Positions 8,917-59,670 of a stretch of DNA of 64,000 bases are shown piece by piece. The position numbers and the translations under genes were made by a program. The stretch's first letter is position 1. Each line of letters begins with the position of its first letter. Under the pieces are notes generated by a model, which was not told the origin of the DNA, searched no databases, and was given only the letters and a program-made list of their open reading frames with translations. The stretch covers positions 23,128 to 87,127 of the forward strand of contig CAYWXI010000002.1 in the NCBI GenBank assembly GCA_964462015.1. Direction: 5' to 3'. The DNA comes from an uncultured Bacteroidales bacterium. GTDB taxonomy: Bacteria > Bacteroidota > Bacteroidia > Bacteroidales > JAEINX01.

Positions 8917-9056
8917 AATGAAAAGGATTTAATTAATTATTTAATTTGATAATCTTTTTTACTACTACGACAAAATATTACACAAATTTAAAAAAATGTC
9001 TTAAATAGCAATTTTTTTTACCTTAAATTTTTGTTAAATAATTTATAACGTTTAAT

Positions 9057-9092
9057 AAAAAAAGCCTGCTCAGCAAAAAACCGGGCAGGCTT
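9057..9092 (-). terminator. Intrinsic terminator after the FKBP gene
   Basis: aagcctgctc/gggcaggctt stem followed by a U-tract on the minus strand. Confidence 0.75.
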
Positions 9093-9113
9093 GTTTCCTA
9101 TTGTTATATTATA

Positions 9114-55406: not shown

Positions 55407-56549
55407 TTATACCCTTATTCCTCTATATAAAGCATCTCTTTCGACAGGAATTCGGCCCGCTTGTATTATTAAATTTTCTAACTCCCCGGTGGTCATTGAA
55501 GGATTTTTTTCTTCGGCACCAGCGAGTGAATAAATTTTTGTCGAATCATTTATTGTGCCATCAAAATCATCGACGCCAAAGGATAATGAAATTTGTGATA
55601 ATTGCCTGCCAATCATTGGCCAATAAGTTTTAATATGAGGAAAGTTATCTAAAAAGATTCTTGAAACAGCATAATTTCTTAAATCTTCAATTACCGATAC
55701 TTCATTAATGTTTGATAATTCGTTATTTGAATTTTTAAATTTTAATGGAATAAAAGCATTGAACATGGAGGTTTTATCCTGTAAAATCCTAAGCCGGTTC
55801 AAATGATCTATCCGGTCGGAATATTCTTCAAGGTGCCCGTAAAGTATTGTTGCATTCGACGGAATTCCCAAACTATGTGCAACTTCATGAATTTCTAACC
55901 ATCTTTTTGAATCGGATTTGCTTTTACATATTTTTTTTCTAAGCTTTTCATTAAAAATTTCGGCTCCTCCTCCCGGTATTGAGTCAAGACCGTAATTTTT
56001 CAACTCCGATAATCCTTCAGATAATGTCATCCCCGATAATTTGATCATATAATCAAGTTCAATAGCCGAGAATGCTTTGATATGAATATCAGGCCGGATT
56101 TCCTTTATTCTTCGCATAATATTTCCATAATAATGCAAATCACGTTCAGGGTGAACTCCTCCTACAATATGAATTTCGTTGATATTTGCATTAGCATTCT
56201 TTACAATTTCAATTATTTCGTCAGGTGAATATTCCCATCCATGGCCTGCATTTCTTTCCGAATACGAACAAAACTTACAATCGTGAATACATTTATTAGT
56301 TGGTTCAATATGCAGATTTCGAATATAATAAGTATAATTTTTATTTTTGCTTTCCCGAATAAAATTTGATAGGATTCCAAGAAATCCCAAATCGGCTTCT
56401 TTAAATAATTTTAATGCATCTTTTTCTGAAATTCTCTCCGAATTAAAAACTTTTTCTGCAATTTTCATTAATCCTTTTGATGTAGAGGTCTTGCGAAGTA
56501 GTTCCAAATTTTCTTTATGTTTATTTATATTTTCTTGCTGAGAGTTCAT
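55407..56549 (-). CDS. mqnE: CofH-family radical SAM enzyme, aminofutalosine synthase-like
   Basis: EPTNKCIHDCKFC, HIKAF, PGGGAEIF, FIPLKF, HIKTYW, FGVDD.DGT. Confidence 0.85.
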   Translation of the reverse strand: MNSQQENINKHKENLELLRKTSTSKGLMKIAEKVFNSERISEKDALKLFKEADLGFLGILSNFIRESKNKNYTYYIRNLHIEPTNKCIHDCKFCSYSERNAGHGWEYSPDEIIEIVKNANANINEIHIVGGVHPERDLHYYGNIMRRIKEIRPDIHIKAFSAIELDYMIKLSGMTLSEGLSELKNYGLDSIPGGGAEIFNEKLRKKICKSKSDSKRWLEIHEVAHSLGIPSNATILYGHLEEYSDRIDHLNRLRILQDKTSMFNAFIPLKFKNSNNELSNINEVSVIEDLRNYAVSRIFLDNFPHIKTYWPMIGRQLSQISLSFGVDDFDGTINDSTKIYSLAGAEEKNPSMTTGELENLIIQAGRIPVERDALYRGIRV

Positions 56550-56579
56550 AGATTATCAGTTAAATTAAATCATCGAATT

Positions 56580-57497
56580 TCATAATTTATTGGCTTGATT
56601 ACTCGACCAAAGTTGTTCATTTTCCCATTCTGTAGGAAAACCCATTTGCTTTAAAGGAATTTCGGGATACTTTGAAATTAATGTTTTAAGTTTATCTTTA
56701 AAATGATTTCCTGGAATAATTGTATTTAATAGATAGAGAATACTGCTAAGAGCAAGGAACATTTTCCCTTGAGGGAAATGAGTATTTGACAACCATACAT
56801 TATTTGTTTTTCTTGGAAGTTTAATGCTTGCTGCAAGTTCCCTGTTCCATAGTCTACCATGGTGAGCACAAATATTTCGAATAACAGAAAGCGAATGCAT
56901 CCAACTTTCCAGTACAAAAGGGTGGCCTAGATTGAAATTTCTGGCAATTACTTTCTTTTCCGGACAAATTTTCAAATTCTCATATATTTTTGACAAAAGC
57001 CCCAGGCTTGTTATTTCCATAATCATCCATGCAGGAGGACGTTTAGGATTAGAATAGGTGTTTTTATAATGTTTAATAAATACTTCGTTCGACCGTTTCA
57101 ATTCTTTATCAATTAATTTCAAATCTTTATTAAAATAAACAGGATTTCGAAATATTTTTTTGTCTTCGTACCAATTACCGCCATACTTAATTGAATATTG
57201 ATAAATAATTTGGGTTCTGAAAGCAATTTCTATTCGCTCAATTGCATCAAAAACCAGCAACCTGAACTTACGGTCAAATAAATAGGTTTGCAAAATTTTA
57301 TTGAAAGTAATATCTGGATAGAAAGGGTGTTCAGGATTTTCATTATTTTGATATGCATATGTGTATGCACGAAGCCTGTAAAGACTTATAAAAGAAAGGT
57401 AACGAGAAGCCCTATCTTCGTCATTAATAAGTAGCCCCCGGCTTTTTAAGGTGTTTATTTGTTGGGCTATTGTTAATGGTGGTTTAATATATTTCAT
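56580..57497 (-). CDS. Abi-family (AbiD/AbiF, Abi_2) HEPN protein
   Basis: ISLYRL.AY, Y.FDR..R, IE.IEIA.R, PPAW..E.TSLG.LSK, RNICAHHGRLWNR, MGFP..W; ATG 57497 chosen as start. Confidence 0.9.
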   Translation of the reverse strand: MKYIKPPLTIAQQINTLKSRGLLINDEDRASRYLSFISLYRLRAYTYAYQNNENPEHPFYPDITFNKILQTYLFDRKFRLLVFDAIERIEIAFRTQIIYQYSIKYGGNWYEDKKIFRNPVYFNKDLKLIDKELKRSNEVFIKHYKNTYSNPKRPPAWMIMEITSLGLLSKIYENLKICPEKKVIARNFNLGHPFVLESWMHSLSVIRNICAHHGRLWNRELAASIKLPRKTNNVWLSNTHFPQGKMFLALSSILYLLNTIIPGNHFKDKLKTLISKYPEIPLKQMGFPTEWENEQLWSSNQANKL

Positions 57498-57505
57498 AGC
57501 CCTAT

Positions 57506-57560
57506 AAAAAAAACCTGCCCGGGTGCGCTGATCTAACGAGAAGCGTGGCAAGTCTTATTG
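57506..57560 (-). ncRNA. Candidate abiF-type structured RNA (putative RNA antitoxin / leader)
   Basis: AAGACUUGCC pairs with GGCAGGUUUU; inner CGCU-UCU/AGA-UC-AGCG hairpin; U8 tail; TAAATTTG promoter element at 57572-57565. Confidence 0.7.
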
Positions 57561-57747
57561 TTTGCAAATTTAATATTAAATTTTTAATTGTCAACATTTT
57601 TTCAGCAATTCTTCTAAATAACTAAAATCCACGTGATCATGTCAAATTTATCAATCCGAGACTTCTCATAACTTTAATATTTTGCCTTATTCTGTTTGAA
57701 AGCATTTATATCTCCTGTTAAAACTAAAGTTTCTTGGACTTCTTTTA

Positions 57748-59670
57748 TTATTTAACCAAATAAGCTTTCAGATTAAAAATTTCTTCAGCACAAATCACCT
57801 GAATCAAATACATCCCCCGGTCATTTTCTGCAAGATTTATTTTATAATTTGTTGAATTAATTGATCTCAAATAAAAAGGAACTTCTTTTCCAAGCATATT
57901 ATAAACATTAATTTTCACATCATGAAGTTCCTGATTACCGAGATAAATATCAATTTCACCTTTTGTAGGATTCGGGGAAATTGCCGGTTTTACAGTGATG
58001 TATTTAACCTTGCATACCGAATCCTGACTAATCAGACTCTCTACTACCAGACAAGCATCATATGTTCCGACCTGACTGTAATAAATACCTGTTGGGTTTT
58101 GTTTATAAGAATATGAAGGAATGGCACCTTCAAAAGTCCAACTCCATTTTTCGGGATCACCAATTGAAAGGTCTTCAAATGAAAGATTAGTTCCTACAGG
58201 AATTTCGATTGTATCAGCCTTAAAATTTGCGATCAGGTTATCACAAACCTCTATACCATCTAATTGCTCAACACCTTTATCGATTGGATCAAGCCAATAT
58301 TTAAGTTGGGTAGTACTATCTGTTCCACATGAATCCCATGAATATGAAAATTTTCCATAAAAATCGGGATATGTTAAATGAGTACATGAAGCTTGTCCAC
58401 CTGTAAGAGTACCTATTACGCGTCCGAAATTATCATATAACGGACAACCTGATGAACCTCCTTCTGTTACACCATGTCCGTTTTCAGTTTGAGCCCATCT
58501 GGCTTTCCAGTGAGTATTTGGAGTTTCACCCCAGGTCGAAGAGGTTATTGGAATTGTATAAGTTGATATTTTTTTTATATCTCCTTCGGGATGGTGAATA
58601 GTAACTCCATTTGGGCTACTTACATTATATCGGTTCCAGCCACCAAAATATGGATTATAAGATGAAGGAATTCCTTGATTTAAAAGCACAAGGAAAAAAT
58701 CAGAACCATCAGTTCCATAACTTGCTTTTTTTGTTGCTCCAACAATAGTATTTGATGAAGGTTCTTCCTGGGGATCAGGGCAGTCGTCAGATTCATAATT
58801 GAAATAAAAAATCCATTGGTTGATATTATCTTCGCTGGAATATTTTCCACAATGATCGGCTGTCAGAAAATATGGCATACAGTCTTCCATCGTATTATTA
58901 ACTAAAGAACCGGTGCACCACATAGAAGAGCCACTACGTTTAACCAACACTCTTGCTACACTTCGTTGTTGATCTTGCCAATCATCTCCTTCCTGACAAT
59001 TTATATTAACCTCGCATGGTCCGGAACCACCAAAATCATCAGTTCCTTTTGTAAAAAGAAAATTAACAGATCGGTAAGCATAAGAAATTTCCGAAATACT
59101 GATTTCAGGTTTCTCATATACTCCATAAGGTTCAAAATATTCCAGAATTGTTGTTTCACCTTGAATTAGTTCGGTTGCAAATAATTTATTTTCAGTATTA
59201 TTTGCTTCGGTAAATGCCCCAATTACCTGTGATTTGTTTTCATTATATAAAAATAATTGTCCACCTCGAGGGATTCGAAAATTATTATAGTAAATTCCTA
59301 TTGCAAGAGCTTCATCAGAAGTAATTTTCAGTCTCCAAATACGGCCTTTTCCCGGAATATTTGTCCATGTACCCGAGTTATTTATATCGAAGTCCACCTT
59401 AATAAGTTTTGCAAATCTTAAGGGTAAAGCTTGTTTGTCATTCTCAGCATCCTCAAGCAATAATTGCTCAACATTTGGTTTTTGCACAATTACCTCCTGA
59501 AAATTATTTTTTAGATTATTCGATGTAAAACCTGCTGGAGTTCCACCCTGGCTTATTTGAGCTATAGTCAAATTACTAAATGATAAACAAAAAATAAAAA
59601 TTATCGTTTTGTAAAAAATATCTTTTTTATTTAAAATCATAATATTTAATTTATTTAAACAGAAATGCAT
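57748..59670 (-). CDS. Lysyl endopeptidase-like (S1) serine protease with PKD and T9SS domains
   Basis: CTGSL, TADHC, DFFL, IHHP.GD.KKIS, GGSSG; F.DLS..WSWTF; SPNPT. Confidence 0.9.
   Translation of the reverse strand: MHFCLNKLNIMILNKKDIFYKTIIFIFCLSFSNLTIAQISQGGTPAGFTSNNLKNNFQEVIVQKPNVEQLLLEDAENDKQALPLRFAKLIKVDFDINNSGTWTNIPGKGRIWRLKITSDEALAIGIYYNNFRIPRGGQLFLYNENKSQVIGAFTEANNTENKLFATELIQGETTILEYFEPYGVYEKPEISISEISYAYRSVNFLFTKGTDDFGGSGPCEVNINCQEGDDWQDQQRSVARVLVKRSGSSMWCTGSLVNNTMEDCMPYFLTADHCGKYSSEDNINQWIFYFNYESDDCPDPQEEPSSNTIVGATKKASYGTDGSDFFLVLLNQGIPSSYNPYFGGWNRYNVSSPNGVTIHHPEGDIKKISTYTIPITSSTWGETPNTHWKARWAQTENGHGVTEGGSSGCPLYDNFGRVIGTLTGGQASCTHLTYPDFYGKFSYSWDSCGTDSTTQLKYWLDPIDKGVEQLDGIEVCDNLIANFKADTIEIPVGTNLSFEDLSIGDPEKWSWTFEGAIPSYSYKQNPTGIYYSQVGTYDACLVVESLISQDSVCKVKYITVKPAISPNPTKGEIDIYLGNQELHDVKINVYNMLGKEVPFYLRSINSTNYKINLAENDRGMYLIQVICAEEIFNLKAYLVK

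Follow-up and report, generated by a model that had tools for sequence, protein, structure and literature searches.

A probable AbiF/AbiFr-type RNA-antitoxin module on a one-kilobase cassette in an uncultured marine Bacteroidales bacterium

AbiF, a HEPN ribonuclease (RNase) with a small noncoding RNA (ncRNA) antitoxin encoded upstream of it (AbiFr or RCd22), is reported to act as a toxin-antitoxin (TA) system of type III. The system is already known, the structure and mechanism of AbiF/AbiFr having been published in 2025. Specifically, PDB entry 8VZ6 contains the AbiF of a Prevotellaceae bacterium (PbAbiF) as a homodimer with two copies of its ncRNA (Zilberzwige-Tal et al., 2025); the ncRNA is described as blocking the HEPN site, a double-alanine variant of R210/H215 is reported to be inactive, and a review ascribes the block of the active site to bulge nucleotides of PbAbiFr, naming C32 and U38 as the inhibitory ones. 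In the phi027 prophage of C. difficile, RCd22 is reported to bind AbiF_Cd and to neutralise it in cis as well as in trans, with a terminator that limits read-through into abiF (bioRxiv 10.1101/2025.04.15.648962). AbiF has moreover been suggested to be ancestral to Cas13, and AbiD/F is described as grouping in one clade with the HEPN domains of ancestral Cas13. Here we describe a related locus in a 64,000-nucleotide (nt) stretch of DNA from an uncultured Bacteroidales bacterium (contig CAYWXI010000002.1 of assembly GCA_964462015.1), hereafter the window, in which a minus-strand abiF gene and a hairpin RNA directly upstream of it very probably constitute an intact AbiF/AbiFr-type type III TA module, of the abortive-infection type, on a cassette of ~1 kb. 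A preliminary description of this DNA, made from the raw sequence with no tools used, had already recognised such a module behind an over-extended open reading frame (ORF); what it gave as established, the association of AbiF with an ncRNA antitoxin and the proposal of a Cas13 ancestor, is indeed found in print.

The protein encoded at the locus (305 residues, to which all residue numbers below refer) matches the Pfam Abi_2 profile (PF07751) over its entire length (positions 1-184 of 184; 187.5 bits where the cut-off is 25.6, E = 3.8e-55) as well as the PADLOC AbiD profile (260.7 bits, E = 4.7e-78), and matches no model in NCBIfam. A PDB search returned one entry, 8VZ6, deposited as "Abi family protein" (8vz6_A, E = 3e-62, 213.8 bits), in which residues 4-296 of the query align nearly end to end with residues 9-299 of the 300-residue chain. 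On these matches, we place the protein in the Abi_2/AbiD-AbiF HEPN family as a full-length homologue of PbAbiF. Its RNICAHH segment supplies the R207-x4-H212 pair, which aligns with R210/H215 of PbAbiF, and none of R207, N208, C210, A211, H212, H213 and R215 varies across an alignment of 26 full-length homologues (L004, L018, L033 and L035, with ORFs shorter than 290 residues, and L031, for which no start was found, were left out of this alignment). The HEPN motif belongs to 22 invariant columns of the alignment, all of which the window protein keeps by construction. The genome of 5.3 Mb to which the window belongs carries this Abi_2 gene only. Judged from the starts of homologues and from the solved protein, the true start codon is the ATG at 57497; in a mechanical ORF list the frame is extended to a TTG that lies within the hairpin, at 57551. 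Both the AbiF-like HEPN protein with an RxxxxH motif and the RNA hidden by an ORF track that runs across it, as first described, are thereby borne out.

The RNA itself has a nested two-helix fold, whose features are collected with the others of the locus in Table 1. On the minus strand, CUUGCC (57552-57547) pairs with GGCAGG (57519-57514) in an outer stem, A57546 lies unpaired between the two stems, and CGC (57545-57543) pairs with GCG (57528-57526) in an inner stem enclosing a 14-nt apical region. The U8 tract that follows is separated from the abiF ATG by the 8 nt AUAGGGCU, which places the end of the hairpin 16 nt before the start codon. RNAfold reproduces the GC-rich RNA originally described, with its 10-bp closing stem (four A/G-U pairs reach into the U-run) and its nested hairpin. 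The 55-nt RNA folds at -15.8 kcal/mol (z = -2.75), as well as which only 1 of 200 shuffles folds; a 72-nt stretch including flanks is uninformative alone (z = -1.31, 22 of 200 shuffles as good). Single-sequence folds of six leaders from different clades give the nested shape in all six. As a separate observation, an exact 11-nt word is common to the inner stem and apical region of the RNA (57534-57544) and to abiF codons 30-33 (57400-57410); a shared word of this length occurs in 0 of 200 shuffles of the coding sequence (CDS), may be a matter of chance among 30 loci, and has no counterpart in the homologues.

To homologous loci we turn for comparison: four from named genomes (42-44% identity), together with 401 sampled genomes of the phylum, 35 of which, the source genome included, have a match at E <= 1e-20. 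The same hairpin is visible by eye in the leaders of homologues. A covariance model, R1, built from 13 leaders of the window type and run against 34 sources (199,014 bases), gave 32 matches at E <= 1e-8, among them the window itself (64.1 bits, E = 2.9e-17, 57565-57502). The motif lies upstream of abiF in all 33 related loci, at E <= 1e-8 in 28 and more weakly in five (L034, L032, L010, L031 and L030; E from 1.4e-4 to 0.068), where it occupies the same position in leaders resembling the Rfam consensus. Twenty-nine of the 31 strong matches outside the window fall on the same strand between -52 and +93 nt of the inferred abiF start; the other two are extra copies ~610 nt upstream. Across 30 distinct rows, 93.6% of 330 cells are paired (23-46% in slid controls) and 52 cells, spread over 6 of 11 pairs, carry double-sided changes; the paired share, the number of double-change cells and the covariation score are each reached by 0 of 500 shuffles, and the count of doubly changed pairs by 6 of 500. 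Independently, MAFFT and RNAalifold applied to 18 leaders recover the outer stem, with compensatory change in 6 of 7 pairs; the inner helix is absent from the prediction for this mixed alignment. The preliminary description had named covariation among homologue leaders as a check and the lack of a conserved structure upstream of homologues as a refutation; such a structure is present at all 33 related loci. It is this comparative evidence, a hairpin and a promoter-box position kept upstream of homologous genes, that carries the case beyond chance.

The source genome, like the window, contains one true copy of the motif. Two further R1 matches, a second one in the genome (C8, 32.7 bits) and another at 9053-9102 of the window, were rejected as plain terminators without the inner helix. 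Two homologous loci (L008:814-877 and L009:824-887) have, ~580 nt upstream of the copy linked to the gene, an orphan duplicate of promoter and hairpin RNA that extends ~40 nt further into the leader and is followed by no abiF frame.

The same comparison bears on the idea that the hairpin and U-run terminate the upstream protease gene and stand before abiF by chance. The shape that this idea calls for is there, a stem with U8 behind it at ~200 nt downstream of where the protease gene stops, but the idea can hardly be credited when the same nested motif precedes abiF at all 33 loci with unrelated genes upstream, when a promoter box separates the hairpin from the protease gene, and when congeners have no hairpin between the same two host genes.

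Bacteroidota promoters have the -7 consensus TAnnTTTG, which we take the TAAATTTG box, 12 nt before the hairpin, to fit. Of 30 homologue leaders, 28 have a TAnnnT box whose end is 11-16 nt ahead of the reference point in the stem, and the two without one (L018 and L022) are leaders whose upstream sequence was cut by the extraction window; 11 of the 30 have the longer form TAnnTT[TG]G. Given this conserved position, the RNA probably has a promoter of its own, and its 5' end would lie a few bases before the stem. The promoter element first described, with TTGACA upstream, is present, and the position of its box is conserved; the number of promoter-like hexamer sites in the region, 4 against 7.8 +/- 3.1 in shuffles, is no more than chance would give. 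A second TAAATTTG box is found at 57643-57650, 78 nt upstream of the first, within the inserted interval and outside the part common to the cassette of a congener. At the other end of the RNA, a U-rich tract follows the stem in 32 of 32 aligned leaders. The window has no second hairpin between motif and ATG, and the distance from the end of the model to the ATG, 4 nt, is the tightest among the 32 leaders: the others with an intact gene 5' end have at least 15 nt, and the 5'-truncated genes of L012 and L013 abut the RNA.

Table 1. Features of the abiF cassette and its surroundings (positions in the window)
Feature	Position	Strand	Remarks and basis
Cassette-bearing interval between the flanking host genes	56550..57747	minus	1198 nt; insertion relative to congeners
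Unit shared with the second-site copy in congener G402 (promoter, RNA and CDS)	56605..57587	minus	blastn
abiF CDS	56580..57497	minus	305 aa; ATG start at 57497; Pfam, PADLOC, PDB, homologue starts
HEPN motif R207-N-I-C-A-H212	56862..56879	minus	invariance in homologues and alignment with PbAbiF R210/H215
Predicted ~55-nt AbiFr-like small RNA	57506..57560	minus	5' end inferred, 3' end = U8; fold and own covariance model
abiF-motif hairpin: 6-bp outer stem, unpaired A, 3-bp inner stem with apical region, 3' internal loop	57514..57552	minus	RF03085 alignment, covariation
3' internal loop CACCCG, predicted single-stranded bulge	57520..57525	minus	RNAfold; also in the nearest protein clade (L007-L009, L011, L012)
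U8 tract, presumed intrinsic termination point	57506..57513	minus	sequence; U-rich tract in homologue leaders
-35-like hexamer TTGACA	57589..57594	minus	TTGACA-16 nt-TAAATT, 10/12 matches
TAAATTTG promoter box (-10/-7 type)	57565..57572	minus	16-nt spacer after TTGACA; box position kept in homologues

By homology to PbAbiF and to the AbiF of C. difficile, toxicity, binding and neutralisation by the RNA, termination, and phage defence would all be expected of this locus. Transcription would start at the promoter (57594-57565), a few bases before the hairpin, and most transcripts would end at U8 as a ~55-nt RNA with one abiF-motif hairpin; transcripts that read through would carry the same hairpin 16 nt before the start codon and encode the 305-residue HEPN RNase, so that the terminator may yield an excess of RNA over toxin mRNA, as had been proposed at the outset. 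AbiF would then dimerise, with R207/H212 of the two chains forming the active site, and each chain would bind one hairpin RNA, whose single-stranded 3' loop may block that site. Should the supply of RNA fall or the RNA be displaced, as by phage infection or transcription shut-off, the freed RNase would be predicted to cut cellular RNA and arrest growth.

The cassette lies between the genes for a trypsin-like protease sorted by the type IX secretion system (57748-59670) and for an MqnE-like radical SAM enzyme of the CofH family (55407-56549). Both flanking genes are present, at 77-87% protein identity, in two genomes of the same genus, G401 and G402, where the protease stop and the MqnE-like ATG are ~145 nt and 5 nt apart, respectively, against 1198 nt in the window, which agrees with the original account of a module inserted alone between host genes. 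No direct or inverted repeats flank the insertion, nor is there a G+C contrast at the cassette (0.28-0.34 inside, 0.29-0.39 beside). A related cassette is present in G402 on the same contig as the protease/MqnE-like locus, ~16 kb away (L050:1334-2330), and is 71.5% identical to the window in a blastn alignment of 989 nt that begins in the -35 region and ends close to the stop. Its promoter and RNA are intact (53 bits for the RNA, with one compensatory change in the outer stem); its CDS has two in-frame stops (TAA and TAG) within the first 50 codons, and the toxin is broken. G401, which is 84% complete, gave no Abi_2 match. Toxin genes with in-frame stops or truncations are also found at L004, L018, L033, L035, L012 and L013, all with normally scoring RNAs upstream, and some decayed homologues lack the first ~50 toxin codons. 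The congeners thus offer a natural example of a 1-kb TA cassette at different sites, with the toxin lost before the RNA. At another locus, an ORF resembling HigA/XRE-type antitoxins lies directly downstream of abiF (L008:2437-2730), which suggests that this neighbourhood is a small TA or defence cluster, unlike the solitary cassette of the window.

Contigs assembled from four marine metagenome DNA runs of three studies contain the cassette with both junctions bridged; no joint skipping it was found in the contigs of these four runs, which drop rare variants and do not imply fixation. In one metagenome contig the minus-strand G57520 is changed to U, turning an A.G juxtaposition into an extra A-U pair of the RNA. 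Within the CDS, contigs differ at 56722, 56750, 56962, 56981 and 57440 (T259I, L250I, P179L, E173K and R20W, respectively). Downstream of the toxin gene, the 30 nt that separate its stop from the MqnE-like gene (56550-56579) contain neither a terminator nor a TAnnTTTG box. Because no terminator follows abiF and the MqnE-like gene lies 5 nt behind the protease gene in G402, transcription of that gene may run through the cassette.

Sorting the leaders by eye yields three RNA subtypes: B1, the window type, with the unpaired A and a YMCCMG loop; B2, with an 8-bp stem and a CGCUYAG loop; and A, which is Rfam-like. When these labels are placed on a maximum-likelihood tree of the 26 proteins, a single change suffices for B1 and another for B2 (supports 84/74 and 100/99), and two changes for all subtype labels together, compared with a mean of 10.9 when labels are shuffled. 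The window falls in a five-row clade (99/97) with L007-L009 and L011, all of which have the CACCCG loop. That RNA subtypes follow protein clades is consistent with cognate, possibly orthogonal, toxin-RNA pairs; since kin share labels, the match is consistent with co-divergence of toxin and RNA and is not proof of it. Two back-to-back abiF modules, each with an RNA of its own, of subtypes B2 and B1, respectively, occur at L007:237-301(-) and L007:1392-1455(+), an arrangement that fits toxin-RNA pairs that do not cross-react. A pair of back-to-back modules is present on contig 55 of G310 as well.

These observations also bear on the possibility that the hairpin serves abiF solely in cis, attenuating its transcription or acting as an operator of its translation in a way comparable to that of lactococcal abiD1, and is no trans-acting antitoxin. 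Between U8 and the ATG there are 8 nt, too few to accommodate a further promoter; a structured 5' untranslated region is reported to control abiD1 translation, with a short, prematurely terminated transcript (introduction of bioRxiv 10.1101/2025.04.15.648962), and RCd22 is reported to lower abiF transcription 17-fold in cis (same source). However, the RNA is described as binding and neutralising the protein in both AbiF systems tested so far, in C. difficile also in trans; its subtype co-diverges with the protein clade, as expected of a protein-binding partner and not of a plain attenuator; promoter and RNA occur as orphan copies without a gene directly behind them in L008 and L009; and the congener keeps an intact RNA beside its broken toxin gene. 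We consider a leader without antitoxin function unlikely, and note that the roles of leader and antitoxin are not exclusive.

The RNA of the window was also compared with the abiF motif of Rfam (RF03085). An Infernal search of 2.2 kb aligns the model over its whole length (1-37) at 57552-57513, scoring 24.3 bits (E = 0.22). Among the 33 related loci the model reaches its threshold in one: in 1 of the 20 searched at the gathering cut-off (L010, 44.9 bits) and in 0 of the 13 searched at E <= 1, of which four gave no match and the other nine gave one sub-threshold match (L030, 27.1 bits). The two RNAs share the nested two-helix shape, the 3' internal loop, and the position and orientation upstream of Abi_2 genes; they differ in that the apical region of the window RNA is longer and its loop reads CACCCG in place of the CAAAUC of the model. 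RF03085 and R1 each match the other's type of leader weakly, and do so at one position relative to the gene; we therefore take the RNA of the window to belong, as a divergent member, to the abiF motif, and probably not to be a separate RNA. Other Rfam matches were set aside, namely OrzO-P (25.2 bits against a gathering threshold of 60), which rests on the terminator-like part, and RAGATH-19, snoRNA and miRNA models far below threshold. The Rfam model misses most Bacteroidota leaders, so that these antitoxin RNAs escape annotation and gene prediction can extend an ORF across them.

Several results weigh against an intact AbiF/AbiFr module. The RF03085 score is below the gathering threshold of 37 bits, and the RNA is unannotated by Rfam's rule; the Rfam check proposed in the preliminary description thus gave a match exactly upstream of the gene that is sub-threshold in score. 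The covariation alignment was fitted to R1, and 13 of its rows built that model; related sequences inflate covariation tests of this sort, a "further pair types" measure is reached by 497 of 500 shuffles, and pair 20-63 is C-G in one subtype only. As an intrinsic terminator the hairpin is unusual, with 27 nt inside a 6-bp G+C-rich stem, and a simple terminator scan does not list it with its U8, because the stem encloses those 27 nt; about one third of homologue leaders have a separate canonical terminator hairpin between motif and ATG, so the motif alone may terminate poorly. Finally, all five CDS differences among the metagenome contigs are nonsynonymous, with no sign of purifying selection at a depth of 3.5-4.1 at which they may be errors, and R20W affects a residue invariant among homologues.

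Those five differences, together with the frequent decay of toxin genes in the family (the six loci named above and L050 of the congener), are what might be expected if the cassette were an inactive relic, its AbiF no longer an active RNase and kept as a recent or neutral insertion. The frame is nevertheless open over the full 305 residues, all 22 invariant columns including the HEPN motif are kept (by construction), the match to the solved protein is full-length, the RNA and promoter are intact, and the cassette was recovered with both junctions bridged from all four runs of the three studies, leaving a relic very improbable.

Within the preferred reading of an intact module, the tight spacing of hairpin and start codon invites a further, speculative proposal, which we regard as rather doubtful. 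The single 39-nt hairpin could hold three functions at once: the antitoxin, the only terminator, such that every toxin mRNA would be a read-through product, and an mRNA leader which, when bound by AbiF, would block its own translation. Bacteroidota mostly initiate translation without Shine-Dalgarno pairing. If the proposal were true, toxin bound to its own leader would provide direct feedback on toxin synthesis. As a further consequence of the cassette's position between two host genes that are 5 nt apart in a congener, the MqnE-like menaquinone gene downstream may have come to rely on transcripts that pass the antitoxin terminator.

With this locus the AbiF/AbiFr family gains a member from a marine Bacteroidota genome, a modest biological gain to which the blind spot of Rfam for most Bacteroidota abiF leaders (one in 33 at threshold), the match of RNA subtype to protein clade, the tight spacing of hairpin and ATG, and a mobile cassette with toxin decay add small points. 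It is useful to set it against the closest known systems. Like Cas13 with the direct-repeat hairpin of its CRISPR RNA, it would pair a HEPN RNase with a bound hairpin RNA; unlike Cas13, AbiF of the window has one HEPN domain per chain and has no spacer, array or guide function, and nothing at the locus suggests RNA-guided targeting. With ToxIN, AbiQ, CptIN and TenpIN it would share an RNA antitoxin upstream of an endoribonuclease toxin; in those systems a terminator between the two is reported to set the ratio of RNA to toxin. Their toxins have the ToxN fold, which is unrelated to HEPN, and the antitoxins of the ToxIN type are tandem repeats cut by the toxin into units, whereas the window has a single hairpin. 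AbiF_Cd-RCd22 resembles it as an Abi_2 toxin with the HEPN R/H pair and an upstream ncRNA, for which an own promoter, co-transcription by read-through and a terminator limiting toxin mRNA are reported. RCd22 is described as having two abiF motifs, a separate terminator and a transcription start site 168 nt before the ATG; the window has one motif, whose own stem and U8 are the only terminator candidate, in a chromosomal, non-prophage context. PbAbiF-AbiFr is a system that the locus resembles in protein family, in the positions of the catalytic R/H residues, in phylum and in a single hairpin ncRNA directly upstream, and from which it differs in a diverged protein sequence (the 213.8 bits being spread over the full length).

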